Under the pieces are notes generated by a model that was not told where the DNA came from, made no database searches, and saw only the letters and a list, made by a program, of their open reading frames with translations. A program made the position numbers and the translations under genes. A DNA stretch of 64,000 bases from an uncultured Gemmatimonadaceae bacterium. Lineage in GTDB: Bacteria; Gemmatimonadota; Gemmatimonadetes; Gemmatimonadales; Gemmatimonadaceae. Shown piece by piece: positions 1,573-63,450 of the stretch; position 1 is the stretch's first letter, and each line of letters starts with the position of its first letter. Where the stretch lies: contig CAWAGQ010000014.1 of the NCBI GenBank assembly GCA_963781585.1, positions 1 to 64,000 of the forward strand. Reading direction: 5' to 3'.

Positions 1573-2765
1573 GCGGGCGTCTCGGCCCCCAGGAATTCCA
1601 GCGCCGCCGCGACGAAGATCCGGGTGCCGTGATCGAGCGCACGCTCGTCGAGATCGAATCGTTCGTGGTGATGGGGAAACACCTTGCCGGTGGCCTCGTC
1701 GCGGGCGCCGATGAAGAAGAACGACCCCGGTGCGCGCTGCTGGTAGGCCGAGAAGTCCTCGCCGCCCATCGTGGGCAGCGCTTCGACCAGCATTTCCCTG
1801 CCTAACGCGCGGACTACCGCGCGTCGCAGGAGCGCGCTCGCCGTGGCGTCGTTGATGACCGGACGATACCCCTCCTCGTACACGAGCGTGAACGTGGCGC
1901 CGTGGGCGCTGGTGACGCCCTCCAGGATGCGGCGCATGAGCCCAGGCACCTTCACCCGCAGCGCCGGGTCGACCGTGCGCACCGTGCCCTCCAGCTCCAC
2001 GGACTCGGGAATCACGTTGTTCGTCGTGCCCCCCTGAATCCGGGTCACCGACACCACCGCCGGGGCGAACGGATCCAGGTTCCGGGAAACGATGTGCTGC
2101 AGGTTGATCACCGCCTCGGCGGCCACGACCACCGGGTCCACCGTGAACTGCGGCGCCGCCGCGTGCCCGCCGCTGCCGCGAACGGTGATCAGGAAGCGAT
2201 CAGGTGCGGCCATCAAGGGTCCGTCCTTTACGCCAACCTGGCCCACCGGGGAGAAGAGCCAGAGGTGCGCCCCGATCACCAGATCCACGCCGTCCATCAC
2301 ACCGGCCCGCACCAGTTCCTCGGCGCCGCCGGGCGCCAGCTCCTCGGCGTGCTGGAATATGAACCGCACTTCACCGTCCAGCTCATCGCGCCGGCCCACC
2401 AGCACTTTCACGGCGCCGAGCAGCATCGCCGTGTGACCGTCGTGTCCGCAGGCGTGCATCACGCCGTCGTTGTGGGAGACGAACGCGTGGGTGTTCTTCT
2501 CCTGAATGGGCAGCGCATCCATGTCGGCGCGGATCGCGAGCACGCGCCCTGGGCCCCGACCCCCTGAGAGACGCGCGACCACGCTCGTCGGGGTCGGTCG
2601 AGTGATCTCAAGTCCCCCGAATTCGGCGAGGGTGTCGGCGACGAACTGGGCGGTGCGCTCCTCGTGGAACGACAGCTCGGGGTATTCGTGCAGGTGGCGG
2701 CGCCAGCCGATGACCGTGTCGCGGACCGAATCGACCGTGGCGTGCGGAGAAATGGCGGTGGACAC
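1569..2765 (-). CDS. M20D family amidohydrolase (N-acyl-amino acid amidohydrolase/hippurate hydrolase-like)
   Basis: Motifs WRRHLHEYPELSF, RADMDALP, MHACGHDGH, FQHAEE, MGGEDFS, PHHH. Confidence 0.92.
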   Translation of the reverse strand: MSTAISPHATVDSVRDTVIGWRRHLHEYPELSFHEERTAQFVADTLAEFGGLEITRPTPTSVVARLSGGRGPGRVLAIRADMDALPIQEKNTHAFVSHNDGVMHACGHDGHTAMLLGAVKVLVGRRDELDGEVRFIFQHAEELAPGGAEELVRAGVMDGVDLVIGAHLWLFSPVGQVGVKDGPLMAAPDRFLITVRGSGGHAAAPQFTVDPVVVAAEAVINLQHIVSRNLDPFAPAVVSVTRIQGGTTNNVIPESVELEGTVRTVDPALRVKVPGLMRRILEGVTSAHGATFTLVYEEGYRPVINDATASALLRRAVVRALGREMLVEALPTMGGEDFSAYQQRAPGSFFFIGARDEATGKVFPHHHERFDLDERALDHGTRIFVAAALEFLGAETPA

Positions 2766-2928
2766 GCGGGCTCCGGTTGAAGCGAACGCAGGGTGAGACG
2801 CGAAGAGTCGGAGGGGACGGTTGCGTCCTCCCGCCGGCCAGCGGTTCCATGGGCGCGTCCCGTCTCGGCCTGGCGAAATGATGTGGTGCGAACCGCGGCC
2901 CCGGAACCCGACGGAGCCAATCCGAGGC

Positions 2929-3051
2929 GAGAAAATGGGGTCGGATTCTGAGAAAATCGGGGTCAGACCCGGATCATCGGTGCTCTCGCGAGCAGCGAAT
3001 CGGTCGGACTCGAATTATCCCTGCCTGTCGAAGGGAATCAGGGTCAGGCTC
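2929..3051. repeat. Degenerate REP-like cluster, four copies of roughly AAT(C)GGGGTCAGAC
   Basis: GAGAAAATGGGGTCGGA (2929), GAGAAAATCGGGGTCAGACCC (2950), AATCGGTCGGACTC (2998), AATCAGGGTCAGGCTC (3036), in a divergent intergenic region. Confidence 0.45.
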
Positions 3052-3203
3052 CACTCGTCACCGTCCGGGCTCAGCCTTCCACCCTGGCCCAGGTGTCCCG
3101 TCTTGACCTCCTGCCGCGACGACCCCACGTTCTCGCGCGACCACGCGGGTTCGTCGCGGTTTCACACGGTTCGCCTGGCGAGCCGCATCGAGACGGAGGT
3201 GCG

Positions 3204-3764: not shown

Positions 3765-3783
3765 TCACGATCTGGAGTTGACG

Positions 3784-4207: not shown

Positions 4208-6385
4208 ATGAGATCGCGGGCTGTCGCCGCGGCCCTGTCCGCGCTGGCCGGAAGCGCCCCGCTGGCGCGGCTGAACGCGCCGGCTCCCGAGCTGTGGCGC
4301 CAGGTGGAGATCGTGCGCACTGCGCACGGCGTTCCGCACATCCGCGCCGAGAACCTGCGCGCGGCCGGCTATGCGCTGGCGTGGCTCCAGCTGGAGGACT
4401 ACGGCCCGCGGACGGCGCTGAACGTGCTGCGCGCGCACGGAGAAATGGCGGCGGTGTTCGGCCACGACAGCATCGAGTCGGACTTCGTATTCCAGCGGGC
4501 GCGTGCGCGCGCAATCGAGACGTATCACCTGCTCGATCAGGAAACGCGCGATCTGTACGACGGATTCGCGGCCGGCGTCAATCGTTATGTGGAGCTCCAC
4601 GGCGGGGAGTTTCCCGCCGGCATGCCGACGGACTTCACCGGATACGACGTCGCCACGCTCGATGTGGGGCTGCCCGGGTTCGCCGCGGCGCGTCGGTTTC
4701 TGGCGCGCATGCAGGGAGGGAGGGCCCGGGGCGATACCAGCCGAGGGAGCGGCGCCACCGAGGATCTGTCGGGCTCGACCGCGTGGCCCGACGTCGGATC
4801 GAACGCCTGGGCATTCGCGCCCAGCCGGACGAAATCGGGCAAGGCCATCCTGCTGCGCAACCCGCACCTGGCCTGGAGCGCGGGCTACTACGAGGCCCAG
4901 ATGACCGTGCCGGGGGTCGTCGATTTCTACGGCGACTTCCGCATCGGCGGCCCGTTCGCGGTGGTCGGAGGATTCAATCGGTATCTCGGGTGGGCCACCA
5001 CCAACAACGCGCAGCTGCGCGACGAGATCTACGCGCTCGACGTGGATTCGGGCGCCACCGATCACATCCTGCTCGACGGCGCCTCGCTTCCCCTCACCCG
5101 CGAGCTGGTGACGGTGGCGTTCCGGAACGGCCCGGGGTTGTCGACCGAGACGCGCGAGGTCTGGTCGACGCCGCTTGGCCCCGTGATTCTCCGGGCCAAT
5201 GGAAAGGTCTACATCGTCCGGACGGCGGGCGACGGCGACTTTCGCGGCGGTGAGCAGTTCCTGCGCATGATGCGCGCCACGTCCCTGGCGGAATGGAAGG
5301 ATGCGATGCGGATGCGCGCCCGCGTGACCTCGAACTTCACCTACGCGGACCGCGCCGGGAACATTCTCTTCCTCTGGAACGCCGCCCTGCCGCTGCTCCC
5401 GCATCCCTCGGGCGGCGACACGATCGCCATTCCCGTGCACGCGACCGGCGATGCCTGGACGCGATACGTGCCGTTCGACTCGCTGCCGCAGTTTCTCAAT
5501 CCCCGCGGCGGGTACGTGCATAACGAGAACAACTCCCCGCATTTCACCAACGTCCGGGAGCCGATCGACACCACCAACGCCTATCCGAACCTGCAGCCGC
5601 CCGACCTGTCGCTCCGGGCGCAGCTGGCCCTCCAGCTGGTGGGAGGGACGAACAAGCTGAGCCTCGAGGACGTGGTGCGGCTCAAGTTCAACTACCGCAT
5701 GCTGCTGGCGGATCGCGTGAAGCCCGATCTGGTGGCCGCGGTGAAGGCCACCGCGCCGGCCGGTGACGTGGCCGCGGCCCTGGCGCTGCTGGAACGCTGG
5801 GACAATACGGCGGCGCCGGACCGCAAGGGCGCCACGTTGTTCGAGGTGTGGTGGCAGCGATACGCGCAGCGGCAGGCCGATTCGCTCAGCTTCGCGACCG
5901 TGTGGTCGGCGGCCGATCCGTTGCGGACGCCGCGCGGCCTGGCCGACCCGGCGCGTGCGGCCGATGCCTTCGCCTGGGCGGTGCAGGAGACGGCGCGCCG
6001 CTACGGCAGCTGGGACGTGGCCTGGGGGGACGTGCACCGGGTGCGGCGTGGATCGGTGGACGTTCCGGTTGGCGGGTGCTCAGGCGCGTTAGGCTGCTTC
6101 CGGGTCCTGAACTTCGCCCGGGACCCCGACGGGAAACTGGAGGCTAATGGCGGCGACGGATGGATTCTGGCCGTCGAATTCGGCGACCTGCCACGCGCCT
6201 ACTCGGTGCTGGCCTACGGAGAGAGTCCGCGCCCGGACTCGCCGTGGCATTCGGATCAGGCCGAAATGTTCGCCCGCGGTGAGCTCAAACCCGTGGCCTT
6301 CACGGCGGCCGATGTGGATGCACAGACGGTGCTGCGGTACCGCCCGGGAGCAGCACCATCATCCGCGCCCGACCATCAGCAGTGA
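4208..6385 (+). CDS. Penicillin acylase family Ntn-hydrolase (PvdQ/AHL acylase-like)
   Basis: IVRTAHGVPHI, GSNAWA (catalytic Ser of the beta subunit), LLRNPHL, NFTYADRAGNI, WGDVHR. Confidence 0.9.
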   Translation: MRSRAVAAALSALAGSAPLARLNAPAPELWRQVEIVRTAHGVPHIRAENLRAAGYALAWLQLEDYGPRTALNVLRAHGEMAAVFGHDSIESDFVFQRARARAIETYHLLDQETRDLYDGFAAGVNRYVELHGGEFPAGMPTDFTGYDVATLDVGLPGFAAARRFLARMQGGRARGDTSRGSGATEDLSGSTAWPDVGSNAWAFAPSRTKSGKAILLRNPHLAWSAGYYEAQMTVPGVVDFYGDFRIGGPFAVVGGFNRYLGWATTNNAQLRDEIYALDVDSGATDHILLDGASLPLTRELVTVAFRNGPGLSTETREVWSTPLGPVILRANGKVYIVRTAGDGDFRGGEQFLRMMRATSLAEWKDAMRMRARVTSNFTYADRAGNILFLWNAALPLLPHPSGGDTIAIPVHATGDAWTRYVPFDSLPQFLNPRGGYVHNENNSPHFTNVREPIDTTNAYPNLQPPDLSLRAQLALQLVGGTNKLSLEDVVRLKFNYRMLLADRVKPDLVAAVKATAPAGDVAAALALLERWDNTAAPDRKGATLFEVWWQRYAQRQADSLSFATVWSAADPLRTPRGLADPARAADAFAWAVQETARRYGSWDVAWGDVHRVRRGSVDVPVGGCSGALGCFRVLNFARDPDGKLEANGGDGWILAVEFGDLPRAYSVLAYGESPRPDSPWHSDQAEMFARGELKPVAFTAADVDAQTVLRYRPGAAPSSAPDHQQ

Positions 6386-7725: not shown

Positions 7726-7727
7726 TC

Positions 7728-15194: not shown

Positions 15195-16876
15195 TGACCG
15201 ACGCGCAGCAGGGCGGGGGGCGGCGCTACGCCCCGAGCGACGAAGTGGACTTCGTGGTGATCGGCTCGGGCACCGCCGGCGGTTCGGTGGCCCGCGAACT
15301 CTCCCGTCGGGGGTTCGGCGTCGTGCTCCTCGAGCAGGGGAAGTGGTACACGCGCGACGATTTTCACCACGACGAGCTGGGCGTCCTGTTCAACAACAAG
15401 TACACGGAGACGGCGGAGCTGCATCCGCAGACTTATCGCAAGACGCCTGACGAGAAGGCCGAGCCGCGCCTCTATTTGCAGTACGCACACGCCGTCGGCG
15501 GCAGCAGTATCCATTTCGCCGCCAACTATTGGCGCTTCCGGCCGATCGACTTCGTTGAATTCAGCACTCGCGGCGGCGTGCCTGGCGCCGCGCTGGCCGA
15601 TTGGCCCATCACCTACGACGAACTCGAGCCGTACTACACCGCGGTGGAGTGGGCCATCGGCGTATCCGGACAGGCAGGAGTGGATCCAGGCGAACCGCGG
15701 CGATCGAAACCGTATCCCCTTCCGCCGCTGCCGCTCACTGGCCCGGGCGCGCTGCTCGACATCGGCGCGCGCAAGATCGGGTGGCATCCGATTCCGGCCC
15801 CCATGGCGATCATCTCGCGGCCGTACAACGGCCGCGAGCCGTGCCACAACTGCGGCTTCTGCTGGTTCTTCCCCTGTGAATGGGGGGCCAAGTCCGGGAC
15901 CAACTTCAGCATGGTGCCCGACGCTGTGCGCACGGGACGCTGCGAGGTGCGCACCGAGTGCAAGACGCGCAGGATCGAAACCGATGACAGCGGCCGCGCC
16001 ACGGGGGTTGTGTATTTCGACCGGAACCGGCGCGAGGTCGTGCAGCGGGCCAGGGCGGTCTTCCTCTGCGCCAATGGCGCGGAGTCGCCGCGGCTGCTGT
16101 TGATGTCGAAGTCCAGCCGCTTTCCCGACGGACTGGCCAACTCGAGCGGCGTCGTGGGGAAGCACCTCATGTTCAACGGCGGGTCGGAGTCCAGCGGCGA
16201 GTTCGAGCACCCGGTGAACGGGCAGCGCGGCGCACCGGTGACGCGCGTTGTGCTCGACACCTACGAGCTGGATCCGTCGCTCGACCTCTGGGGTGGCGGC
16301 GGATTCGATTTCCGGCAGCCGTTTCCCCCGATCCTGTCCGCGCTCAGCATGCCCACCGACGGCCCGCAATGGGGCTCGGAGTACAAGTCGCTCCTGCGTC
16401 ATCTCCACACGCACTATGCGCAGGCCTGGGGACACACGTCGTCGCTGCCGGTCGAGACCAATCGCGTTGACCTCGACCCGGCTCTCACCGATGCCTGGGG
16501 CCTGCCGGCGATCCGGGTCACGTTCAAGGAGCACGAGCAGGATCTGCGGCTGTACAAGTACTTCGACGACCGTGGCAAGGATCTTCTCCGGGCGGCCGGG
16601 GCCACGCGGGTCTGGGGCGGCGGCGACGCGCCGGACGAGCCCGGCGGTTCCGTACACTTGTTAGGTACCTGCCGCATGGGGAACGACCCGCGGACCTCGG
16701 TCGTGGACCGCACCAACCGCGCCCACGACGTGCCCAATCTCTTCATCGTGGACGGGAGTTCTCTGGTCACCTGCGGACGGGGCCAGCCCACTCTGACCAT
16801 CCAGGCGCTTGCCTTCCGCGCGGCCGACCACGCTGCCCGGATGGCCAGGAGCGGCGAACTCTCCCGCCCGGGCTAG
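15191..16876 (+). CDS. GMC family flavoprotein oxidoreductase
   Basis: VVIGSGTAGG, VGGSSIHF, WPITYDELEPYY, CHNCGFC, HLLGTCRMG, QPTLTIQAL; ATGA overlap with subunit 3. Confidence 0.92.
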   Translation: MMTDAQQGGGRRYAPSDEVDFVVIGSGTAGGSVARELSRRGFGVVLLEQGKWYTRDDFHHDELGVLFNNKYTETAELHPQTYRKTPDEKAEPRLYLQYAHAVGGSSIHFAANYWRFRPIDFVEFSTRGGVPGAALADWPITYDELEPYYTAVEWAIGVSGQAGVDPGEPRRSKPYPLPPLPLTGPGALLDIGARKIGWHPIPAPMAIISRPYNGREPCHNCGFCWFFPCEWGAKSGTNFSMVPDAVRTGRCEVRTECKTRRIETDDSGRATGVVYFDRNRREVVQRARAVFLCANGAESPRLLLMSKSSRFPDGLANSSGVVGKHLMFNGGSESSGEFEHPVNGQRGAPVTRVVLDTYELDPSLDLWGGGGFDFRQPFPPILSALSMPTDGPQWGSEYKSLLRHLHTHYAQAWGHTSSLPVETNRVDLDPALTDAWGLPAIRVTFKEHEQDLRLYKYFDDRGKDLLRAAGATRVWGGGDAPDEPGGSVHLLGTCRMGNDPRTSVVDRTNRAHDVPNLFIVDGSSLVTCGRGQPTLTIQALAFRAADHAARMARSGELSRPG

Positions 16877-17567: not shown

Positions 17568-18476
17568 ATGGCTGACGCGGCGCCGTCGTTCCTCGCCGGC
17601 GAGTCTCCATTTCGCGGTGCGCGCCCGCTGCTGACCGACCACGTGCGGGTTGCCGCCATCGCCGCGGCCGGGGTGGCGTGGCTCGTGCTCTTCGCGCAGC
17701 CTCTCGTCAACACCGTCCAGACCTGGTGGACGAGTCCCGAGGCCGGTCACGGATTGCTCCTTGCGCCGATCGCGCTCTGGCTTGCCTGGCGACGCGGCGT
17801 GGGTTCCGACGCGCGTCCCAACGTGGTGCTGGGAGCATCGATGCTCGTGGCGTCGGTGGTGCTCCGCTATGTGTCGGCCGTGGCCGCCGAGGTCTTCATC
17901 GGCCGGGTCTCGATGTTCCTCGCGATTGCCGGCCTGGTGGTGTATGCCTGGGGAGCGCGTCAGCTGCTCCGGTGGTGGCTCCCGGCGCTGCTGCTGGCCC
18001 TCTCGGTGCCGCTTCCCGAGATCATCATGAGCTCCCTCGCGCTGCCCCTTCAACTCAAGGCGTCCAGACTGGGCGCGGCTCTGCTGGCCGCGCGCGGCGT
18101 CCCGGTGCGGCTCGACGGCAACGTCATCCGGTTGCCGGGGCACGATCTGTTCGTGACCGAGGCATGCAGTGGCCTGCGCTCGCTCACCGCCCTGCTCAGC
18201 CTCGGCGTGTTGTTAGGCGGAACCGCGCTGCGCCATCCGGTCTCCCGCATCGCGCTGGTCGCGCTGTCGATTCCGGTCGCGGTCGTGATCAACGGCGTAC
18301 GCGTCTTTCTCACCGGATTCCTGGTGGCGTTCGTGGATCCCTCGCTGGCCGAAGGGTTCACGCATCTCACCGAAGGATGGCTCCTGTTCCTGGTGGCATT
18401 CGGGGTGCTGGGCGTCATCGCCTGGGCGGCGCGTCTGGTCGAGCGCCGCCTGGGAGGCGCGTCGTCCGATGCGTGA
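17568..18476 (+). CDS. Exosortase (EpsH/Xrt family)
   Basis: Multi-TM protein; HGLL, PLQL, VTEACSGLRSL (catalytic Cys), INGVRV (Arg), FTHLTEG (His). Confidence 0.92.
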   Translation: MADAAPSFLAGESPFRGARPLLTDHVRVAAIAAAGVAWLVLFAQPLVNTVQTWWTSPEAGHGLLLAPIALWLAWRRGVGSDARPNVVLGASMLVASVVLRYVSAVAAEVFIGRVSMFLAIAGLVVYAWGARQLLRWWLPALLLALSVPLPEIIMSSLALPLQLKASRLGAALLAARGVPVRLDGNVIRLPGHDLFVTEACSGLRSLTALLSLGVLLGGTALRHPVSRIALVALSIPVAVVINGVRVFLTGFLVAFVDPSLAEGFTHLTEGWLLFLVAFGVLGVIAWAARLVERRLGGASSDA

Positions 18477-19233: not shown

Positions 19234-20061
19234 TCAGTCGCCGTACAGCCGCTTCCGCTCCGCGAGAATGACCGCCGGGTCGTTCGAGATGATCCCGTGG
19301 ACCCCTCGGCCCCAGAGACGTCCCGCCGTCGACGGGTCGTCGACCGTCCAGATGTGCACCAGGACTCCCGCGCCGCCTAACGCGCGGGCCAGCGCGCCCA
19401 CCGGCAGCGGGATGCCATGAAACACTTCTGGAATGCAGACCGTGTCCACGCCGGGCGTGCGGATCGGGAACCCCAGACCGGCCGTCACCAGCAGCCGCAT
19501 CAGGTCGCGGCGCGACGCGCCGATCGCGATTCCGGATCCCAGGAAGGGAACGAGCGCGCGGTGATCGAAGGCGGCCACCACGCAGCGATCCTGGGCGCGA
19601 TGCCGCTCGATGAGGGACCGTGTCCCCGACGAGGCGCGAGGGGTCTTGATCTCGATGAGCAGCGGGGTCGCGGGTAATGCGCCGAGCACCTCGTCCAGCG
19701 AGGGAACCGCGATGCCCAGGCCCGCGTAGGGAGTCGAAGCCCCGCCATCGGGAGAGAATCGTGCTCCCGCGTCGAGCCGGCTCAGGTCGTCGAACCTCAT
19801 CGTGGCCACCGCACCTCGGCCGCTGGTGGTGCGCTCCACCGTGGGGTCGTGAATGACGACGATCTGACCGTCGGCCGTGGCATGTACGTCGAATTCCAGC
19901 GCATCGACGCCTGACGCCAGCGCCTGCCGGAATGATTCGAGCGTGTTCTCGGGGGCGTGCGCGGCGTTGCCCCGATGGCCCACCACCGGACGCCGCGCGG
20001 AGTCGAGTAGGGGGTGTGTGCGTACACCCGCCGTGGGCCGGCGGTCACGGGACAGGGCCAT
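19234..20061 (-). CDS. Glycerophosphodiester phosphodiesterase
   Basis: VVGHRG, APENTLESF, LEFDVHATADG, VIHDPTVERTT, IEIK, HIWTVDD, GIISNDP; start placed at ATG 20061. Confidence 0.9.
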   Translation of the reverse strand: MALSRDRRPTAGVRTHPLLDSARRPVVGHRGNAAHAPENTLESFRQALASGVDALEFDVHATADGQIVVIHDPTVERTTSGRGAVATMRFDDLSRLDAGARFSPDGGASTPYAGLGIAVPSLDEVLGALPATPLLIEIKTPRASSGTRSLIERHRAQDRCVVAAFDHRALVPFLGSGIAIGASRRDLMRLLVTAGLGFPIRTPGVDTVCIPEVFHGIPLPVGALARALGGAGVLVHIWTVDDPSTAGRLWGRGVHGIISNDPAVILAERKRLYGD

Positions 20062-20118: not shown

Positions 20119-23021
20119 AACTGATACTGCAGCCGCGTGACGACCATCCTCCCCAGCAGCGGCGTTCCCGGCATCGTCCGGTAGCCGTGATTCAGCAGGT
20201 TCTCCGCGTTCAGGGACCACAGCATTGAACCGCGCTTCGTGCGAAAGCGCTTGTTCACGCTGGCATCGACCAGGGTGGATGTGTGCACCCCTTCGTACCG
20301 GTAGTAGCCCGCGGTGCCCGGTTTCGGGAAATCGAAGTCCGACGCGAATACGCCCGAGTTCACCGGATAGGCGTTGATGTAGCGCCCCCGCACCTCGAAT
20401 CCCCAGCCCCGCGGTTCGTCCCGGAACTGCGCGCTCAGCGTGGCCTTGTCGTCCGGCGCATTGAGCATCAGCGGCAGCGAATTGCTGCTCACGACGCCGG
20501 GGAAGATCAGGTCGCTGACCCAGCTGTACGATCCCGAGAACGTCCAGTTGCTGTTGGCGACCAGGTCGGCCGCCAGGTCCACCCCCTTGACGGTGATCGT
20601 CTTGTTGTAGCTGGTGTACGTGGCGTACACATCGCGCGCGCTGGCGAACTGGTCGCTGTTGAAGCTCACGATGCCTAACGGGAGGGGGCCGAGGCCGCCG
20701 CTCCCGGCGATCGCGCCCGCGATCTGCGGCGCGAACACCTGCGCCGTGCCCTGGGCCTGCGCGGGGGACATGTTGAACGGCGGCTGCTGCAGCGCCCCGG
20801 TGATTGCCGGAATCAGCGCCGTCTGCATGAAGTTGTGCAGCGAGGTGGAGTCGAAGAACACGTTCGGGGTCGCCAGACCGGCCGGATTACCCACGTCACC
20901 GCGCTTCTCGCTCCAGGCGTCGATCGCCAGCCGCAGGTTGCGCCCGATGATTCCCTTGTAGCCCACTTCGTACGTGTTGTTGAACGAGGCCTTGATCGGG
21001 CCGATGTCGGTGATCTCGTCAGGCGACAGGTTGTGCGTCGACGCCAGGTAGTGCAGTTTCGTGTCGAGTTGCGCCGGCGTGGGCTGCAACTGCCCGAGGA
21101 AGGTCACCAGCTGCTGCGCCACTCCCTGGGCCGTCGCCGCCGGAACGCCCAACCCCGCCTGGATCCTGGGCGCCAGGCCGGCCACGATCGTGCTGGCGTT
21201 GCTCTGGATCGCCCCCTGATACGCGATCGCTGCCGACGCCGGCTGCCAGACCGTTTCCCCCGCCGGCCCGGTGAAGATCGTGCGCATGCAGAGGTTCCCG
21301 GCCGAGCCGCTACAGTCGCGGCGGAAGGTCCATCCCGTCTTCGGCGGATTGCCTAACGCCCTGATGTTGTACGGCGTCCCGAGGATGTTGCGGGCCTGAA
21401 TCAGATCGAGGAACCAGGTGAAGTTCGCCGGCGTCGAGAACGCACGGTTGTAGGTGAACCGCAGGTTGTGGTTCTCGGTCGGCTTGAAGACGATCGCGGC
21501 CCGCGGCGAGACCTGCTCGCCGTCGATCTGATCGTTGTTGTCCACCCGGAGGGCGGCCACCAGGTCCCACTTCGCCCCGAGATTCGTGGTCGACTGCACG
21601 TAGCCGCCGATCTCCCGGACGTTGTCGATACCCTCGTTCCGCCCGTTGATCGTGTTCCCCGTCCGCGGATTGGTGTAGATGTAGTCCAGGCCGTAGATGA
21701 AGTCCTGTCTGGTGCCAAGCGAGAGCCCGTGCTGGATCTGTGCCGCGTACACCCGCGACTGGTCCACGATCGGCTGCCCGCTGCGAAGCAGATAGGTGCC
21801 CTTCAGACTCAGGCTGTCCGGGTTCCCGGCGTCGCTGAAATTGGCGAACACCTGCGCGAACAGCCGCCCCACCCGCATCCGCTGCTGCGCGCTCACATAC
21901 CTCCAGTTCTTGGCCAGCGCGGTGCCGTTGGCGCCCGTGTATTCGAGGCCGCTCCCGATGTGCGAGAGGCCGACCGTCGTCACGTACTCGGCATTGGCCG
22001 CCGGACGCACGTCCATCCGCGCCTCCCCCGTATAACGCCTGAGCGCGAAATCGCGCACGTCGGGCTGGCCGCGGCGGCCCGGCGGCGCCGCATCCGGAAA
22101 TACCGCCGGCTCACCGGGATCGTGATACTCCCAGTCGGACGCCGTGAGGAACTCCCCCGAGAGCTTGAACGCCACCTTCGGCGTCACGATCGTCGCGAAC
22201 CGCGCCGAGCCGCGCAGCAGCGACCGGTTCCCCCCGTCGATCGTGAGCGTCGTTCCCTCCGACTCGAACGGGGACTTGGTGATGACGTGCAGGACCCCGT
22301 GCGAGCTGTTGGGGCCGTAGAGCGCCGACGCCGGCCCGAGCAGCACCTCCACCCGCTCGATGTCCTCGTTCGAGGCCGTGAACAGGAGGGGTACGTTCAC
22401 GCGCAGCGATGGCACCGCCGCGAACCGATAGTCCTGCAGGGTGAGAATCGATCCCGAGAACGCGTTGTTGAACCCGCGCGCCACGATGTTGGACTGCGCG
22501 ATGCCGCCGCGGCTGATGTCCACCCCGGCCAGTCCCTCGAGATGGTCGGCTACCGTCACCGACGGCTGCTCCTCGATCTTCCGCACGTCCACCACCGACA
22601 CCGACGCCGGCGCCGACAGCGCCTTCTCCTCCCTGCGCGATGCTGTGGTCACGACCGGATTCAGTTCGGTGACCGTCTCGCGCATCTGCAGGTTCACCGT
22701 CGCGCTGCCGCCGGCCGTCACCGAAACCCTTTCCTGCCGCTGGGGGACGAAGCCGATCCGCAGCGCCACCACCTCGTAGGTACCCACCGGAACGTTCGTT
22801 AGGCGATAGGCGCCGTCGTCGGCCGTGAGCGCCGACGCGGCCACGGAGGTGCCCGACAGCGCGCGCACCTGGGCGCCCGCCACCGGCATGCCCGACTGCA
22901 GGTCGGTCACCGTGCCCGTGATCGTCCCCGTCTGCTGGGCTCCGATCGGGACGGCCGTCGCCGCGACCAGCAATGCCGGCGCCAGCAACAGGAGACCGCG
23001 GATACGCGAGAAGGGCGACAT
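20115..23021 (-). CDS. TonB-dependent receptor with N-terminal carboxypeptidase-regulatory-like domain
   Basis: Signal peptide, GTITGTVTD, VVTTASRREE, IERVEVLLGPASALYG plug motif, ENLLN, C-terminal YQF. Confidence 0.92.
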   Translation of the reverse strand: MSPFSRIRGLLLLAPALLVAATAVPIGAQQTGTITGTVTDLQSGMPVAGAQVRALSGTSVAASALTADDGAYRLTNVPVGTYEVVALRIGFVPQRQERVSVTAGGSATVNLQMRETVTELNPVVTTASRREEKALSAPASVSVVDVRKIEEQPSVTVADHLEGLAGVDISRGGIAQSNIVARGFNNAFSGSILTLQDYRFAAVPSLRVNVPLLFTASNEDIERVEVLLGPASALYGPNSSHGVLHVITKSPFESEGTTLTIDGGNRSLLRGSARFATIVTPKVAFKLSGEFLTASDWEYHDPGEPAVFPDAAPPGRRGQPDVRDFALRRYTGEARMDVRPAANAEYVTTVGLSHIGSGLEYTGANGTALAKNWRYVSAQQRMRVGRLFAQVFANFSDAGNPDSLSLKGTYLLRSGQPIVDQSRVYAAQIQHGLSLGTRQDFIYGLDYIYTNPRTGNTINGRNEGIDNVREIGGYVQSTTNLGAKWDLVAALRVDNNDQIDGEQVSPRAAIVFKPTENHNLRFTYNRAFSTPANFTWFLDLIQARNILGTPYNIRALGNPPKTGWTFRRDCSGSAGNLCMRTIFTGPAGETVWQPASAAIAYQGAIQSNASTIVAGLAPRIQAGLGVPAATAQGVAQQLVTFLGQLQPTPAQLDTKLHYLASTHNLSPDEITDIGPIKASFNNTYEVGYKGIIGRNLRLAIDAWSEKRGDVGNPAGLATPNVFFDSTSLHNFMQTALIPAITGALQQPPFNMSPAQAQGTAQVFAPQIAGAIAGSGGLGPLPLGIVSFNSDQFASARDVYATYTSYNKTITVKGVDLAADLVANSNWTFSGSYSWVSDLIFPGVVSSNSLPLMLNAPDDKATLSAQFRDEPRGWGFEVRGRYINAYPVNSGVFASDFDFPKPGTAGYYRYEGVHTSTLVDASVNKRFRTKRGSMLWSLNAENLLNHGYRTMPGTPLLGRMVVTRLQYQF

Positions 23022-41835: not shown

Positions 41836-41845
41836 CGCGTACCGC

Positions 41846-42649: not shown

Positions 42650-44008
42650 ATGGCTTCTCTGCACGTCGCTCAGAGCGCGCATCCTGATACGCAAGGGGCG
42701 GCTGGTTCGCCCACGTTCGTCGGCGCCGGCATCAGCGTACCGCACGCTGGTCGCCCCATCGTGCGTCTGCCCGCCCGATGCATTGTCGCCGCACTCGCGT
42801 TTGCCGTGGAGCCATTGCATGCCCAGGCCGCGCGCGACAGCGCCGGCATCCAGATCGTCGAGAACAGCCAGCCGGCGCTCTCCGGCGCCCGTGCCTGGCG
42901 CCTGTCGCCGAAGCCGTTCCTGGAAATCGGATCCCGAGCCTCGGACGTCGGTGCTGCGCAGGATTCGCTCTACGGGCTGCTCCGCGTGAACGGCATCGCG
43001 CGGCTCAGCGACGGGCGCGTGGCGGTGGCGAACGACGGCTCGCTGACGATCCGGTTCTTCGACCAGGCGGGGAAGTTCGTCTCGTATGCTGGCCGCGAGG
43101 GACAGGGGCCCGGCGAATTCCAGCAGCTCCTGCGGATGACCCAGCGGGCGGGCGACACGCTTGTCATCACCGATCTGGGCGAGGTGGAGTACTTCTCGGG
43201 GGACGGCAAGTTCGTGCGTCGGGGCGTGCATCGCGGCGCCGAGCAGCCGCAATTCCACTTTCCACAGGCCTGGTTTCGCGACGGCTCGTTCCTGGCGGCC
43301 GACTACGCACCCACCGCGCCGCCCCCGGACGGACGCACCCTGATACGCGTCCCCCTGCTCAGGGTGTCGGCGGATGGCGCGCGGGTGGACACGTTAGGCA
43401 CATTCCCGCTGTGGGAGCAGATCTTCGATGGACGGACGCCGTACGGGAAGGGAATTGTCTTCAGTCCCACCGGGCAGCTGGCGTGCGACGGGGAGCGGGT
43501 GTACGTCGGGCTCCCGGATCGCTACCAGATCAGCGTCTACAGCGGCCTGGGCCGGTTGGAGCGCATTGTCCGGCGGTCCTGGCAACCGATCGTGGTCCGC
43601 GATGAGGACAAGGCGGCCTATCGGAAGCACACGCTCGACGGGAGCGGCGAGAACGGACGGCCATGGCCGCCGGAGGTCCGCGCCCGGCTTGAGAAATCGC
43701 TCGAATCCACTGTGTATGCCGACCGGTTTCCCGCGTTCTCGACCATGACGGCCGACCGTGCCGGGAACCTCTGGGTCCGGCAGTACGACTACCGCGCCGA
43801 GTTCCGGACCGCTGGTCGCGTACGCATGGAAACGCCGGTGGTCGCGACCCACTGGGATGTCTTCGATGGACAAGGGGGCTGGCTGACCACCCTCACAGTG
43901 CCAGCGCGATTCGCGCCGCTCGAGATCGGGGATGACTACATGGCCGGCCTTTCGCGGGATGACGACGATGTGGAGCACGTCCAGCTCTATCGTCTCATGA
44001 AGCCCTAG
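42650..44008 (+). CDS. Exported beta-propeller protein (6-bladed type)
   Basis: RDSAGIQIVEN, GREGQGPGEF, ADRAGNLWVR, WDVFDGQG, DDDDVEHVQLYRL; GGAGG RBS. Confidence 0.8.
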   Translation: MASLHVAQSAHPDTQGAAGSPTFVGAGISVPHAGRPIVRLPARCIVAALAFAVEPLHAQAARDSAGIQIVENSQPALSGARAWRLSPKPFLEIGSRASDVGAAQDSLYGLLRVNGIARLSDGRVAVANDGSLTIRFFDQAGKFVSYAGREGQGPGEFQQLLRMTQRAGDTLVITDLGEVEYFSGDGKFVRRGVHRGAEQPQFHFPQAWFRDGSFLAADYAPTAPPPDGRTLIRVPLLRVSADGARVDTLGTFPLWEQIFDGRTPYGKGIVFSPTGQLACDGERVYVGLPDRYQISVYSGLGRLERIVRRSWQPIVVRDEDKAAYRKHTLDGSGENGRPWPPEVRARLEKSLESTVYADRFPAFSTMTADRAGNLWVRQYDYRAEFRTAGRVRMETPVVATHWDVFDGQGGWLTTLTVPARFAPLEIGDDYMAGLSRDDDDVEHVQLYRLMKP

Positions 44009-44162: not shown

Positions 44163-47100
44163 ATGCCACGCTTCGCAAGAACGTTCCTCGCCTCGTGCGC
44201 TCCAGCTCTCTTGCTCGCATTCCCTGTCGCGGCGCAACCGCGGGCGACGCGCCCGCCTTCGCCGGCCGCTGACGGCACGCCCCGCTCGACCACCGCGCTG
44301 GCCAGGAGCAGTGCGGCCGCGGTTGCCGACCTCCCTCCCGATTCCGTTCTGGTCCGTTCGCTCGAGTTCCGCTCCATTGGACCGGCATTCATGGGCGGCC
44401 GGATTGTCGACATCGCCGTGGCGGAGAATCGATCGCCCGCAGGTGGGGGCGGCCCGGGGACGGTGATCTTCATCGGCGCCGCGACCGGGGGCGTCTACAA
44501 GTCCACCAACGCCGGCGTATCGTGGAACGCCGTGTTCGATTCGGTCCGTGCCGGCTCGATCGGAGCGGTGGCGGTGGCGCCGTCGAACGGTGACGTGGTC
44601 TGGGTGGGGACGGGCGAGGCGAACAACATGCGCAGCTCGTCGTGGGGTGTTGGCGTCTTCAAATCGACCGACGGCGGGGAAACGTGGTCAGGTCCCATGC
44701 TCCCGAAGTCACAGCACATCGGACGCATCGTCATCGATCCGCGCGATCCGAACGTGGTGTACGTCGCCGCGATGGGGCCGCTCTGGGCCGCGGGCGGCGA
44801 GCGCGGCCTATTCAAGACCACGGACGGCGGCAAGACGTGGACCAACACGAATCAGATCAGCGAGCACACCGGCTTCATCGATCTGGCCATGGACCCGTCC
44901 GATCCGGACGTGCTCTACGGCGCGGCGATGGAACGGGAGCGGCGTGAATACGGATTCCTCCCGGCCGGTCCCGAGAGCGGGATCTTCAAGACGGCCGATG
45001 CAGGGCGGACCTGGACCCGCCTGACGAAGGGCCTCCCAACCGGCGACCTCGGACGCATCGGCCTCAGCGTGTGCCGGTCGAAGCCGAGTACCGTGTACGC
45101 GATCGTCCACGCGCGCGGGAATACCGGAGGCACGTTCCGCAGCGACGACGCGGGAGCGTCGTGGCGGCAGGTGAATGCGGTGAACGGCACAGCGTGGTAC
45201 TACAGTCAGATCCGCTGCGACCCCACCGATCCCGAGCACATCGTGAGGCTCAACGCGAGCTCGCAGGAATCATGGGACGGCGGCAAGACCTGGAGCGCCT
45301 TCGCGCAGGGCGGGGGCGTGCACGGCGACCATCACGCACTCTGGATCAATCCCGACGCGCCAGAGCAGATGATCCTCGGCAACGACGGCGGGCTGAACAT
45401 CTCGTGGGATCGCGGGCAAACGTGGGACCATGTCGAGAACTTCGTGGCCGCGCAGTTCTACGCGATCGCGGTCGATGACGCGCAGCCGTTCTACAACGTG
45501 TGTGGCGGGTTGCAGGACAACTTCTCCTGGTGCGGCCCCAGCCGCACGCGGAACGCCTATGGGCCAACGGCCGCCGAGTGGTATCGCACGCACGGCGGCG
45601 ACGGGTTCTTCGCGGTGCCCGATCAGTGGGACAACAACTTCGTCTACGCCGAGATGCAGAGCGGCGGCGTGGTGCGGTATGATGCGCGCACCGGGCTGAG
45701 CAAGAACATCAAGCCGGTACCGAAGGCTGGTGAGCGCCATCGCTACAACTGGAGCGCGCCTATCCTGCCGTCGCGTCACGAGCCGAAGACGATCTACATG
45801 GCGGCGAACTACCTGTTCCGGAGTCCCGATCGCGGCGACACGTGGGAGACGATCAGCCCGGATCTTACGCGCAACATCGATCGCAACACGCTGCCGCTCC
45901 GGGGATCGGTGCCCGACAGCAACGCGCTCGGACGCAACGAGGGAACCGCCGAATTCAGCAACATCACGACGATCGACGAATCCCCGGTTCGCGCGGGGCT
46001 GCTGGTGGTGGGCACCGACGACGGGCTGATCCAGGTCACGCGCGATGGTGGCAGGACCTGGGTGAAGACGGAGCGGTTCCCGACCGTTCCCGAGACGACG
46101 TACGTGAGCCGCGTGGCGTTCTCCCGATTCAACGAGGGGACGATCTACGCCACGCTGGACGGCCACCGCAGCAACGACTTCAAGCCGTATGTGGTGCTGA
46201 GCACGGACTACGGCCGGACGTGGGCGGCGATGACTGGCGACCTGCCCGACGGCGGCCCGGTGTACGTGGTACGGGAGGACGTGCGCGAGGCGGGTCTGCT
46301 GTTCGCGGGAACGGAGCACGGGGTGTTCTTCACGATCGATCGCGGGCAGCACTGGACGCAGCTCAGGAGCGGCATTCCCGGAGTGCCCGTGCACGATCTG
46401 CAGATCCAGGCGCGGGCAAACGACCTGGTGGTGGGGACGCACGGTCGCGGGATCTTCATTCTCGACGACCTCACCCCGCTGCAGCAGCTCGCGGCCGCGA
46501 AGCAGGCGGCGGTTGCCTACCTGTACCCGGTGCGCGACGCGCTGCTCTTCCAGCCTAACGCGAGCCGGAACTCGGGAATGGGCACGAGCGGCTGGAGCGG
46601 TGAGAACCCACCGCCCGGGGCGAGCATCGCCTACCTGTTACGCACCGTGCCCGCCGACGCGAAGCCGACCTTGTCCATTGTCGACGCGTCAGGCACCGTG
46701 GTTCGTGAATTGAGCGGCGAGAAGGAGCCGGGCCTGTATCGCACGACCTGGGACATGCGCGTGGGTCCGCCACTCACGGGTCCTGTCGACACGATGCCGC
46801 CGGGTCGCGGCGGTCGCGGTGGACGCGGGCAGCTCGCCGGTGGACAGGCGGGACGCGGTGGTGCGGTGGGCGGGCGTGGCGCTCAGGGTGCGCGCGGAGC
46901 CGCGCGCGGAGCCGCGCGCGGGGGCGGGGGCGGGGGCGGGGCGGGCTTTGGCGGCGGATTCGGCGGCCGGGGGAATGGCGAGATCACGTTCCTCGCACTC
47001 CCGGGTCCGTACCGGGCGCGCCTGACGATCGCCTCGCCGCACGGCGCGCCGACGGTGTTCGAGCGGCAGTTCACTCTGCTCAGGGATCCGATGGTGCTGC

Positions 47101-61128: not shown

Positions 61129-62063
61129 GAGCGTCGCTCCGGCAGCGGCGGAGGCGGCCAATGGTACAGAGTGATCATCGCCTCGCCGCCGGCTGCCTCG
61201 TCGCTCACGATCAGCACGCGGTCGCGCGTGACCGCGACGCCCTCGGCCTGCGGATGCGAGCCCGGAAGGGCGGTGACCCGCACCACGCCACCGGTCGGGG
61301 TGATTTCGACCAACGCGTGCTCGATCGACGCCACCATGACGTAGTCACCGGTGGCCGGGTCGATGGCAATGTCGGATGGGTGCAGACTGCTCCATCGAGT
61401 GGAGCCGATCAGGCGGCCGAGCGGCACTGTCATCATCGAAATGCGCGGTGACTCGGCCCCTTGCAAATTCCAGCGATAGATCACGAGCTGATCGCGCAAT
61501 GCCTTCTTCCTCACTTTCTTGCACGGAAGCAGCAGCGACTCGGAGCGGGGCTCGAACGCCACGCCCTCGAATTCGCATTCGTGCCCGAGCCGGGTGTCAT
61601 GGATCGCGAACGGCACGTGCGCTCCATCGGCGCCCTCGCGGAACTCGTACAGGGTGCCGTTGCTCTCGATCATGTAGATCGTGCCGTTGGCGATCGTCAG
61701 GCCTTCGAAGTCGCCGTGGATCGCGGTTGCGCCGACCGCGAAGCGCTTGAGAATGGTGCCGCCGCGCGGGTCGATCACGGTGATCAGGCCGCGTTCATCG
61801 CCGTTCGTCAGGAGACGCCCGTCGGCCGTGAGCGCGATGCCGGAGATCTCGCGCAGCGCCTTCGGCAACCACCAGCGCGCCAGCGGGACGGTGTCGTCGG
61901 CGAGCCGGGCGGGAGGCGACATGAGCCGGGTCGCGAACCGCACCCGGCGGGCCGCGCTTTCCGCCATCTGCGCGCGCGCGCTCATGCCGTCGCCCGCTGG
62001 ACGGCATCCCATCCACGCCATCAGCGCACACACCGATCCGATGAGCAGCCGATGGCGCGTCAC
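61125..62063 (-). CDS. SdiA-regulated (YjiK-like) beta-propeller protein, probably a lipoprotein
   Basis: LREISGIA, NGDE, GDFEGLT, EFEGVAF, LHPSDIAI, QAEGVAV, IVSDE; N-terminal ALMAWMG-C; AGGAG RBS before GTG 62063. Confidence 0.8.
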   Translation of the reverse strand: MTRHRLLIGSVCALMAWMGCRPAGDGMSARAQMAESAARRVRFATRLMSPPARLADDTVPLARWWLPKALREISGIALTADGRLLTNGDERGLITVIDPRGGTILKRFAVGATAIHGDFEGLTIANGTIYMIESNGTLYEFREGADGAHVPFAIHDTRLGHECEFEGVAFEPRSESLLLPCKKVRKKALRDQLVIYRWNLQGAESPRISMMTVPLGRLIGSTRWSSLHPSDIAIDPATGDYVMVASIEHALVEITPTGGVVRVTALPGSHPQAEGVAVTRDRVLIVSDEAAGGEAMITLYHWPPPPLPERRS

Positions 62064-63148
62064 GATGTCTCCTGGTGCTTGCGCTGTATCGCCTCCCCCA
62101 GCTCGAGCTCGGCGTTCCCGATGCAATCGACTCCACGCGCCCGGACCGCCGTGATGAGTTCTTCGCGCGACAGCGACTTGCCGATCCGGACCAGGTAATG
62201 GAGCTGCGACGGCTTGCCGACATGCGACACGACTTCATCGAGCAGCCAGCGCTTGGTCATCTTGTCGAGCACTTTCTGAACGGCGACCTGCGCCTCGCCG
62301 ACCTGGTCGGTGGTGACTGTCAGCACGGCGTTGAATCGCGGCTTTTTCGTCCTGGGACCCAGCACCTGGCGCATACGATCGAAGCGTTCGGCGAGCACCT
62401 CGACCTTCTTGGGAGTCAGCGCGAGCATCAGATCGCGATCAGGGACGTGACCGTTCCCGTTGGACCGGGCCAGGCTGTCGAGCGGCTGACTCCACTGGGC
62501 GACCGGCGTCGGCACGAGCACGTTTCGCCCGAAGTCGTAGCGCCAGGTGAGGAGGAGGACGAAGTTGAAGATCATCGATACGAAGGCGCCCAGGGCCAGC
62601 GTCTGCACGCCCGCGGCGAAGCCCACTGCGATCGCGAGGAAGATGAAGACGCTGTCGCGCGCGTCGCGCAGGGTGGTGCGGAATCGCACCGCCGCGACCA
62701 CGCCCGCCAGACTCAGGGCGAGGGCCAGACTGTCCCGCACCACGAAGACCACGCCCGCGATCACCAGCGGGAGGATGATGAGGGCCTGAGCGACCGACTG
62801 GTTATGGCCCGGCGTTTCCCGCGCCGACATGTACACCCAGGACACGGGGAGCATGAGCGCCAGTGTCCCCAGCAGCGACACGAAGGTGGTGATCCCGATT
62901 CCCGGCAGCGAGTCGGACGTGAAGACGGGCAGCTGGGCGCTCGCCGGACTCAGTCCGTCCTGGAGCAGCCGGGTGGGCCCGGCTCCCGCGCCGAGCGTAT
63001 CGCCGAGGAGCAGGTGATTCAGAGGAGGAAACAGCCACAGCAGCAGGGTGGTCACCCCGGCGAGCACCGCGTAGTACGCGAGCAGGCACCGCAGGGGACG
63101 ATCCGAGCCGCGAGTGATGAAACCGATGGTGCGTGAGACGATGGACAT
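62060..63148 (-). CDS. DUF4956 domain (MgtC/SapB-like) membrane protein
   Basis: ALSLAGVVAAVRFRTTLRDARDSVFIFLAIAVGFAAG plus a C-terminal soluble alpha/beta domain; start ATG 63148. Confidence 0.8.
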   Translation of the reverse strand: MSIVSRTIGFITRGSDRPLRCLLAYYAVLAGVTTLLLWLFPPLNHLLLGDTLGAGAGPTRLLQDGLSPASAQLPVFTSDSLPGIGITTFVSLLGTLALMLPVSWVYMSARETPGHNQSVAQALIILPLVIAGVVFVVRDSLALALSLAGVVAAVRFRTTLRDARDSVFIFLAIAVGFAAGVQTLALGAFVSMIFNFVLLLTWRYDFGRNVLVPTPVAQWSQPLDSLARSNGNGHVPDRDLMLALTPKKVEVLAERFDRMRQVLGPRTKKPRFNAVLTVTTDQVGEAQVAVQKVLDKMTKRWLLDEVVSHVGKPSQLHYLVRIGKSLSREELITAVRARGVDCIGNAELELGEAIQRKHQETS

Positions 63149-63450
63149 GCCTGGTTCCGTTGAGAGGGCCGATGAAGGCGCGGACAGGGATCCCATCATA
63201 CCCGTCGTTTCGTCGGGTGAGTTCCGCGGAGGCGCCCTGCTCAGCCATACCGCGTCCGGATGAGCGCGTCGTGTGCCGCGATCGGAGAAGGCCGGTCTGA
63301 TGCCAGCGGGGGATACGGCGGCCTGATCGGGGTTTCGGCGTGCCGCGTCGCGGCCGATCGGCGTGGCCGCCGGAGCGCGCCGTGCGGCCTGTTGGAAAGG
63401 AAGGCGCGCCCGGTCAGCCGGTCGCCGGTGCGCCTAACGAGTGACCGGCG

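Follow-up and report, generated by a model that had tools for sequence, protein, structure and literature searches.

An over-represented non-palindromic octamer matching the integron core site in Gemmatimonadota and Verrucomicrobiota: a possible uptake-like word

Introduction

The uptake signal sequences (USS) of the Pasteurellaceae and the DNA uptake sequences (DUS) of the Neisseriaceae accumulate through biased uptake and recombination, and to our knowledge uptake-type genomic words have been experimentally established in two proteobacterial families only. Chi sequences, and the FtsK-orienting polar sequences or SpoIIIE recognition sequences (KOPS/SRS), which are read by RecBCD/AddAB or by FtsK/SpoIIIE, are skewed with replication and modestly over-represented. 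For highly iterated palindrome 1 (HIP1; GCGATCGC), as for CCWGG in E. coli, an older reading was that the word is a by-product of a methylase and repair. In the accessible part of a recent preprint, HIP1 is now proposed as an uptake or transformation signal, and its abundance is linked to pilus and competence proteins, with transformation experiments cited (10.64898/2026.06.24.733823). Here we describe the octamer GCCTAACG/CGTTAGGC, hereafter the word, in a stretch of 64,000 nucleotides (the window; G000:C14:1-64000) that is part of G000, a 5.72-Mb Gemmatimonadota assembly of 17 contigs. The word was found in strong excess throughout G000, in a few lineages of Gemmatimonadota and of a second phylum, Verrucomicrobiota, and in temperate phages, and it matches the core site of the integrons of both phyla. 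We tentatively suggest that it could work like an uptake sequence.

In the literature searched, we found no description of this word or of any uptake-type word in either phylum. Searches with both motif strings gave only primers and unrelated sequences among the matches listed; the pairing of Gemmatimonad with uptake sequence gave nothing, and that of Verrucomicrobi with DNA uptake sequence gave only work that is unrelated, judged by title and abstract. Neither of the two phyla, nor the word, appears in the main text of "Abundant Oligonucleotides Common to Most Bacteria" (PMC2843746).

Results

Excess of the word in the window and in the genome

The window contains 17 copies of the octamer, 11 on the plus strand and 6 on the minus strand, and 20 copies of its hexamer core CCTAAC (11 and 9), at a GC content of 0.645-0.693 in 4-kb steps. 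Dinucleotide-preserving shuffles of the window yielded 0.94 octamers (standard deviation 1.0, largest 4) and 6.0 hexamers (largest 13), and none of the 100 shuffles reached the observed 17 or 20. All of these octamers and cores had been listed in a preliminary description of the stretch (Table 1), whose rough zero-order expectation of about 2 octamers became about 2.4 per window (216.6 per genome) when recomputed. Independent gene calls also returned the frames given there: 13 Leu-Gly via TTA-GG, 4 Pro-Asn via CCT-AAC, one Arg-Leu-Thr via CTA, one gene end (CGT-TAG) and one intergenic copy. The motif had been said to supply most TTA codons, and 13 of the 17 TTA codons of the window genes indeed lie within GTTAGG. 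The absence of strand bias noted for the hexamers of the window was found again for the octamers of the whole genome (718 forward and 724 reverse).

The enrichment persists beyond the window. G000 holds 1442 octamers, at 1.9-3.4 per 10 kb on all 17 contigs, when 217 would be expected from composition (order 0) and 89, 44 and 51 from Markov models of orders 1, 2 and 3. The excess over the order-2 and order-3 expectations is 28- to 33-fold, and under orders 1-3 none of the 29,958 octamers that occur 100 times or more ranks above the word. The excess disappears at orders 5-6, because the 6- and 7-mers themselves already hold it; 75% of the CCTAAC hexamers of G000 lie within the full octamer. Flanking bases contribute little, C or T being favoured before the octamer and G avoided after it.

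Genes were called in G000 with our own codon log-likelihood model, a crude one, which gave 4707 genes and 85.7% coding sequence (CDS). We then swapped synonymous codons within each gene in 30 shuffles, a procedure that keeps the protein and the codon usage, including the TTA codons supplied by the word. The CDS contain 1124 octamers, against 48.8 +/- 6.2 after shuffling (largest 65), a 23-fold excess; the enrichment thus survives a codon-preserving null, and shuffling removes 96% of the copies. The preliminary description had placed the signal at the level of DNA and not of protein, a view upheld by the codon shuffle, the use of both orientations and several frames, the denser noncoding DNA and the stop codons within the word.

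The word fills the places that permit it: Ala, Ser, Thr or Pro followed by Leu-Gly via the rare TTA codon, Pro-Asn, stop codons and spacers. In the CDS, 761 copies are in the frame NCG-TTA-GGC, 268 in nnG-CCT-AAC-Gnn, 65 in nGC-CTA-ACG and 30 in nnC-GTT-AGG-Cnn, and 761 of the 1374 TTA codons of G000 are inside the word. The word spells 13-17% of tripeptides of the form [ASPT]-Leu-Gly and 14-28% of those of the form Pro-Asn-[VADEG]. The other 318 copies are outside the CDS. Spacers are 1.7 times denser than genes, convergent spacers being densest (80 copies in 100 kb vs 47 in 231 kb of divergent spacers), and 116 genes use a TAG or TAA within the word as their stop codon. Several one-letter variants also exceed the synonymous shuffle: ACCTAACG 12-fold, GCCTAACA 3.8-fold, GCCTGACG 3.0-fold and GCATAACG 2.2-fold. 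Variants altered at position 2 or 7, or with T for C at position 3, occur at just 0.04-0.27 of their shuffled counts; this null is inflated for variants that contain TTA, and the depletions are upper estimates.

Orientation, spacing and position

The orientation of the octamer in G000 is tied to the gene strand solely through the reading frames. No bias was found by the sign of the GC skew (396 vs 415 and 263 vs 240), orientation in spacers was judged not to be tied to gene starts (109 vs 80), and no inverted pairs of the word were seen at terminators. In 10-kb bins the number of copies nearly follows a Poisson distribution and never exceeds 9, and the idea of hot spots was rejected on this basis. 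Close copies avoid each other: 29 gaps shorter than 300 bp were found in G000 vs 106 expected, with an excess of gaps of 1-5 kb, and the related genome G009 has 27 gaps shorter than 200 bp vs 68 expected.

By quintile of codon typicality, the density of the word in G000 climbs from 1.07 to 3.01 per 10 kb, and low-GC windows hold 1.1 copies vs 2.6. Three word-free stretches of 26-39 kb were found (Table 1). The two longest span 38.7 and 38.4 kb, when 0.07 such gaps would be expected from the mean spacing by our own estimate. One contains recX, recA and ftsK to tolQRAB, and the other arginine-synthesis genes, gidA and a parA-like gene; foreign islands were rejected as the cause for these two, which hold core genes. 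The stretches on C5 and C8 are low in GC (0.62).

Conservation of sites between species

We aligned G000 with 400 kb of the congener G001 and kept 60 of 70 high-scoring segment pairs, dropping those below 80% identity, shorter than 500 bp or overlapping. In the 338 kb aligned (87.6% identity), the word is common to both genomes at 61 sites, private to G000 at 19 and private to G001 at 9. Orthologous sites differ by substitutions only, and at private sites the alternate sequence is mostly one letter off. Among the CDS sites of G000, 53 of 67 are kept in G001, compared with about 39% (38-47%) of 8-mers in matching codon phase. In G009, which belongs to another genus (g9; 65-71% identity), three of the seven aligned window sites carry the word too.

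Distribution in Gemmatimonadota

Most of 31 relatives contain 2-65 copies. Higher counts were obtained in G009 (6360), G001 (915), G005 (605), G015 (516), G014 (460), G030 (345), G013 (194) and G016 (173); in a 260-kb sample of G009 there is one copy per 810 bp, with the preference G>A>C at position 1. An RpoB tree (FastTree) covered 25 of the 31 genomes; G001, whose gene is in pieces, was left out, and G002, G005, G010, G011 and G014 gave no match. In this tree G009, G015, G016 and G000 form one clade (support 99), and G030 is basal in another family. In a broader survey, with at least 1.5 times the reversed-word control as the criterion, 17 of 401 genomes were word-rich, all in one order: 13 of 95 in family f1, 4 of 166 in family f2 (all of genus g75) and none in the other nine families. 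The contrast is sharp inside genus g42, where G232, G289 and G393 contain 3479-4141 copies and G285 only 66. The survey tables include four unpublished genomes (G008, G077, G195 and G116), all word-poor, on which no conclusion rests.

In G285, short tandem arrays of the heptamer AGARAGC occur about 13 times in 60 kb within a repeated spacer element. A AGAAAGCAG signal of this genome, considered as a dialect of the word, was rejected, being the 7-bp tandem array of that element. In G000, contigs C2/C6 and C5/C8 carry near-duplicate genes, namely those of an Eco57I-like protein (87-91% identity) and duplicated pilins and peptidases. With these duplicates and contamination stated as 7.19%, the bin may be a mixture of two related genomes.

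The word in a second phylum and in phages

A pair scan of one genome per species for two octamer copies within 30 bp gave at least 125 matches. Among the 80 matches listed, 15 were Chthoniobacterales, 2 "Verrucomicrobiae" and 11 Gemmatimonadaceae, Gemmatimonadales or Gemmatimonas. Three of the genomes found by the scan contain 4562, 5186 and 1312 copies vs 285, 257 and 272 of the reversed control. A 166-kb contig of the densest Verrucomicrobium, G411, carries 252 copies (125 and 127 on the two strands), up to one per 0.7 kb, and in 94% of them A follows the octamer, making the 9-mer GCCTAACGA. The word is patchy in this phylum as well, with 7 of 121 genomes of the order of G411 enriched; the counts in the two phyla together cover about 550 genomes. 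Cross-phylum transfer of the DNA itself was rejected, since the 166-kb contig shares nothing above 76% identity with G000.

A pair scan of viral contigs gave at least 119 loci, 80 of them with flanks, and most consist of just the two seed copies. Four viral records, of 41, 45.6, 41.7 and 49 kb, are filled along their length and carry 43, 35, 16 and 18 copies, respectively (controls, 0-4). The 45.6-kb phage, 100% complete by CheckV, encodes large and small terminase subunits, a portal, a protease-major-head fusion, tail proteins and an integrase, and its 35 copies are placed inside structural genes at host-like density. Three word-rich viral contigs gave no meaningful match to G000. These results confirmed the word in Chthoniobacterales (Verrucomicrobiota) and in temperate phage genomes.

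The apparent enrichment of other genomes was rejected as tandem or repeat elements only: Pirellulales G413, Bacteroidetes G422, Acidobacteriota G414, Cyclobacteriaceae G423 and Lacipirellulaceae G424. At three places in G413 and at several in G422, the 7-bp unit GCCTAAC is repeated in tandem, up to 20 times; these arrays were probably matched merely because the scan required two close octamers. In G414, octamer pairs exactly 25 bp apart recur many times over 400 kb as a repeat family. Thermoanaerobaculia G425 was mildly raised (575 vs 389).

Identity with the integron core site

The few copies in word-poor relatives cluster on one strand about 600 bp apart and coincide with integron cassette arrays, in which single short open reading frames (ORFs) are separated by attC sites of 90-142 nt, detected by a gapped-arm hairpin search. 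Every one of these attC sites ends in the word or a near variant; the end is CGTTAGGC in 22 attC of G021, 7 of 9 of G019 and 7 of 7 of G371, and the opposite end is TGTTAGGC. GTTAGGC and GCCTAAC fit the integron core sites given as GTTRRRY and RYYYAAC in the accessible part of a published account (PMC3053210). Judged by sequence, cassettes in the integrons of both phyla are joined at the octamer, C-G|TTAGGC. We had predicted beforehand that Verrucomicrobial attC would carry the extra A of the 9-mer, and 20 of 20 attC of G488 begin RYCTAACGAG. By our own arithmetic, the chance that a random octamer holds the exact heptamer is about 2x10^-4, and the link of the word to the integron core was therefore taken as real. 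This identity is probably a causal clue to the specificity of the reader.

The dispersed copies are of a different form. In G000, 1435 of 1442 lie outside attC-like hairpins, the nine such hairpins holding the other 7, and the dispersed copies lack the inverted-repeat attC structure of 57-141 nt that joins two core sites. An array on one strand beside intI is present only at C7:172-185 kb, within a chromosomal integron (C7:170000-187000); the other copies are dispersed on both strands. IntI (TIGR02249 above cut-off) was found in 41 of 61 genomes including G000, in 22 of 32 rich and 19 of 29 poor ones, and G411 has none. The genome-wide word begins strictly with GCC-, and the attC ends of G488 begin mostly with ATC- or ACC- (11 and 5 of 20); of 2700 RYCTAACG copies in G488, just 188 are not GCC-.

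Integrons are known from both phyla, according to the accessible part of one report (PMC8618304). Cassettes shared across the phyla were rejected: the ORFs of nine integron regions match only in recombinases and in one G021-G454 pair (31% identity). Large arrays were located in five genomes (Table 1). The attC of the Chthoniobacterales arrays is 123 nt long and begins RYCTAACGAG, and some Chthoniobacterales intI genes contain one in-frame stop (G454, G488, G506, G459 and G432). G000 also encodes an IntI-like tyrosine recombinase of 303 amino acids in three copies with identical match scores, in which the match skips profile positions ~181-216. It has relatives in G001, G014, G290 and G021, CGTTAGGC follows each of the two C7 copies after about 24 nt, and the protein does not track word abundance.

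Candidate readers

Among the candidates examined as readers (pilins, four methylases, RecC, ComEC, PilM and IntI), none correlates with the word. G000 contains parts of a transformation apparatus: ComEC, DprA, a ComEA-like HHH_3 protein, PilM, about 12 pilins and a PilT-like ATPase. G000 is not among the 6 of 48 genomes in which RecC (PF04257) was found; AddAB was not searched for. The origin by modification or repair envisaged in the preliminary description received no support among the candidates tested. The methylase screen passed 43 proteins through a motif filter and scanned 13 candidates, a procedure by which methylases may have been missed. G000 encodes several methylases and a Dcm-Vsr fusion. 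The Type IIG-like L264 was found in G000 only, and the Eco57I-like L262 type shows vertical inheritance across rich and poor genomes, with its C-terminal part unshifted. The Dcm-Vsr fusion and a TaqI-like enzyme are missing from word-rich genomes.

In the fusion, a single protein of 487 amino acids, a C-5 cytosine methylase (PF00145) is combined with a Vsr mismatch endonuclease (PF03852). A protein of ~1075 amino acids with an Eco57I/MmeI-type methylase domain is kept in all 20 Gemmatimonadales relatives fetched, at ~50% identity within a family and ~36% between families, and looks vertically inherited and housekeeping-like.

Table 1. Copies of the word in the window and other loci mentioned in the text
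Feature	Location	Strand	Context
Octamer GCCTAACG	1800..1807	+	GCG-TTA-GGC (Ala-Leu-Gly) in minus-strand gene
Octamer	6087..6094	-	GCG-TTA-GGC (Ala-Leu-Gly) in plus-strand gene
Hexamer core only (TGTTAGGT)	16660..16665	-	TTG-TTA-GGT (Leu-Leu-Gly)
Hexamer core only (TGTTAGGC, variant GCCTAACA)	18212..18217	-	Leu-Leu-Gly
Octamer	19375..19382	+	Ala-Leu-Gly via TTA, minus-strand gene
Octamer	20673..20680	+	CCG-TTA-GGC (Pro-Leu-Gly), gene 20115-23021 (-)
Octamer	21351..21358	+	Ala-Leu-Gly, gene 20115-23021 (-); site also has the word in G009 (genus g9)
Octamer	22797..22804	-	CGC-CTA-ACG (Arg-Leu-Thr), gene 20115-23021 (-)
Octamer	26878..26885	+	Ala-Leu-Gly, gene 25564-26952 (-)
Hexamer core only (CGTTAGGT, variant ACCTAACG)	29029..29034	-	CCT-AAC-GAA (Pro-Asn-Glu)
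Octamer	29524..29531	+	Ala-Leu-Gly, gene 29266-31725 (-); site common to G009
Octamer	30754..30761	+	Ala-Leu-Gly, gene 29266-31725 (-)
Octamer	33330..33337	-	CCT-AAC-GAG (Pro-Asn-Glu), gene 32602-33846 (-)
Octamer	35874..35881	+	CCT-AAC-GAT (Pro-Asn-Asp), gene 35293-38043 (+)
Octamer	37778..37785	-	Ala-Leu-Gly, gene 35293-38043 (+); site common to G009
Octamer	39650..39657	-	Pro-Leu-Gly, gene 39070-41835 (+)
Octamer	41844..41851	+	End of minus-strand gene (CGT-TAG); TAG is its stop codon
Octamer	43392..43399	-	ACG-TTA-GGC (Thr-Leu-Gly), gene 42761-44008 (+)
Octamer	46553..46560	+	CCT-AAC-GCG (Pro-Asn-Ala), gene 44391-47696 (+)
Octamer	63432..63439	+	Spacer between two minus-strand genes
intI	G000:C7:185885-186829	-	TIGR02249, 434 bits
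attC-like hairpin	G000:C7:172172-172266
attC-like hairpin	G000:C7:174688-174746
attC-like hairpin	G000:C7:182754-182865
attC-like hairpin	G000:C7:185287-185345
attC-like hairpins	G000:C13		3 hairpins
attC-like hairpins	G000:C11		2 hairpins
303-aa IntI-like recombinase	G000:C7:172407-173237
303-aa IntI-like recombinase	G000:C7:183006-183836
303-aa IntI-like recombinase	G000:C13:309021-309851
Word-free stretch	G000:C4:866742-905435
Word-free stretch	G000:C8:283862-322251
Word-free stretch	G000:C5:298151-324259
Dcm-Vsr fusion	G000:C7:477213-478676
Eco57I/MmeI-type methylase	G000:C2:157766-160996
Large cassette array	G021:C95:1-26000
Large cassette array	G019:C3:1-9000
Large cassette array	G371:C2:1-6000
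Large cassette array	G488:C2:1391000-1405000
Large cassette array	G415:C40:52000-58000
AGARAGC tandem arrays	G285:C67:1-60000
GCCTAAC tandem array	G413:C36:1944-2077
GCCTAAC tandem array	G413:C1:13991-14047
GCCTAAC tandem array	G413:C7:28423-28507
Octamer pairs	G414:C4:995000-1384000		Repeat family

Discussion

We consider it possible, short of probable, that GCCTAACG/CGTTAGGC is a DNA-level word that works like uptake sequences and has spread by molecular drive. A sequence-specific factor would read the word as double-stranded DNA, and fragments bearing it would be favoured when cells take up, keep or recombine the DNA of their kin. The word would then spread by molecular drive into every position that coding permits and be held there. 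The specificity of the reader would coincide with the integron core, that is the last attC bases plus GTTRRRY, cut CG|TTAGGC, which is the same in both phyla; this common core may be why unrelated phyla share one word. We infer the reader and the bias in uptake or recombination. Uptake-like drive was favoured because the observed features (the excess over a codon null, equal strands, filling of permissive places, conserved sites, avoidance of close copies, higher density in genes of native codon usage and occurrence in a few lineages of two phyla) match those of uptake sequences, the only kind of word with an established mechanism of accumulation.

Several observations weigh against an uptake-like drive. 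In the literature searched, competence is not documented in either phylum. Competence genes are equally common in word-poor genomes (ComEC in 47 of 48 genomes, PilM in 59 of 61, DprA and the ComEA-like protein in 5 of 5 each), and the presence of these genes therefore does not explain the patchiness. Matches to the ComP_DUS receptor (PF16732) were all below cut-off and were also found in the word-poor G285, and BLAST with the C-terminal domains of the G000 pilins matched nothing in two word-rich Verrucomicrobia (30 of the 38 pilin matches having loci). No alternative dialect words were found in 100-kb samples of the poor relatives G003, G020, G021 and G285. Avoidance of close copies is absent in the Verrucomicrobial contig (coefficient of variation, 1.48), and the two longest word-free stretches unexpectedly consist of ordinary core genes. 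An intracellular process accounts for the density in the 45.6-kb phage as well as uptake does, or better; this phage is temperate, and residence in a word-rich chromosome could explain it.

That the copies are binding or target sites of IntI or a related tyrosine recombinase, stand-alone R boxes kept by selection as cassette landing pads or decoys, seems unlikely to us. The attC ends in the arrays of relatives, which are the word or a near variant matching RYYYAAC/GTTRRRY, would suit such sites, as would the extra A common to the G488 attC and the 9-mer, the tolerance of A (that is, of R) at position 1, the enrichment of GCCTAACA, which is the other attC end, the presence of IntI in two-thirds of the genomes, G000 included, and the integrons known in both phyla. 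IntI nevertheless does not follow abundance and is missing from G411, nearly all copies in G000 lie outside attC-like hairpins, and the purely substitutional differences between orthologous sites show that these are not insertion scars. The strict GCC- of the genome disagrees with the ATC- and ACC- of the G488 attC, GCCTGACG breaks the AAC triplet yet is 3-fold enriched, and orientation in spacers is unrelated to gene starts. We know of no step by which IntI multiplies its own site. According to the accessible part of one study, genomic insertion by IntI needs only GWT (10.1101/2022.09.11.507474). Still less likely, in our estimation, is a wider form of the uptake-like proposal, in which the DNA-selecting machinery of a few lineages of two soil phyla is tuned to the integron core as the sole sequence common to the whole cassette pool. 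Such machinery would import or keep cassette and kin DNA, the flooding of chromosomes and prophages would be its by-product, and the lineages would form a cross-phylum community of gene exchange.

The word could also be a self mark for a helicase-nuclease or defence system, by which DNA that bears it often enough is spared degradation, as with Chi. One copy per 0.7-4 kb at a spacing more even than chance would serve this purpose, phages of these hosts carry the word at host-like density along their whole length, and such systems would be expected to move between phyla, which suits the patchy spread. We regard a self mark as improbable in view of the lack of GC-skew bias, the rarity of RecC (AddAB, as said, was not searched for) and an excess of 23- to 33-fold in the rarest codons, far above that of Chi. 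Slightly more improbable again is a by-product of a methyltransferase with coupled short-patch repair or mutation bias. A CCTAAC core has the shape of asymmetric Type IIG or BREX-type sites, G000 holds several such enzymes and the Dcm-Vsr fusion, and HIP1 is recognised by two methylases, according to the accessible part of the preprint (10.64898/2026.06.24.733823). None of the four candidates tracks the word, however: L264 is confined to G000, the L262 type is vertical in rich and poor genomes alike with no C-terminal shift, and rich genomes lack both the Dcm-Vsr fusion and the TaqI-like enzyme. Avoidance of close copies would be unexpected from a process acting per site, and the depleted neighbours of the word go beyond transitions. 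An artefact of composition, codon pairs or a common peptide has next to no chance of being the answer. Most copies do encode a common tripeptide, Ala/Ser/Thr/Pro-Leu-Gly; the artefact is refuted by the synonymous shuffle, which keeps peptide and codons and yields 48.8 copies vs 1124, by spacers denser in the word than genes, and by close relatives of the same composition with 2-65 copies.

The word is unusual as a non-palindromic sequence that is the same across two abundant, mostly uncultured soil phyla and equals the cut site of their integrons. If this link is causal, natural transformation or another DNA-selecting process would be joined to the integron cassette pool, the word would offer a sequence handle for the reader, and its density would mark DNA exchange partners in soil. 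For annotation, the word explains most TTA codons and 116 stop-codon contexts of G000.

The analogy with uptake sequences and HIP1 drawn in the preliminary description fits most measurable features. Like USS and DUS, the word is short and non-palindromic, occurs in thousands of copies equally on both strands, lies in genes where coding allows and more densely between them, and is common to related species in which competence genes are present. It differs from them in that no ComP-type pilin was found, in being known here from its sequence alone, in its restriction to a minority of related genera with no dialects seen, and in that it also occurs in a second phylum, equals the integron core and forms no inverted terminator pairs that we could see. 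With HIP1 it shares the length of eight letters, a density of about one copy per kb, conservation at silent sites and, in the case of HIP1, a function long unknown; HIP1 is palindromic, has known cognate methylases and is nearly phylum-wide, whereas the word is asymmetric, patchy and not tracked by a methylase. Chi and KOPS/SRS are likewise asymmetric 8-mers spaced every few kb over the chromosome, but the word is unskewed and in 23- to 33-fold excess, and no RecC was found in G000. Compared with the integron attC/attI core (R' box GTTRRRY, inverse core RYYYAAC) and attG, the dispersed copies have no attC hairpin in 1435 of 1442 cases, are located within conserved core genes and not beside intI, are independent of the presence of IntI and are more sequence-specific than the R box. 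The octamer is nonetheless C plus GTTAGGC, including the base or bases before the cut, and this identity of the word with the integron core site is what is new here.

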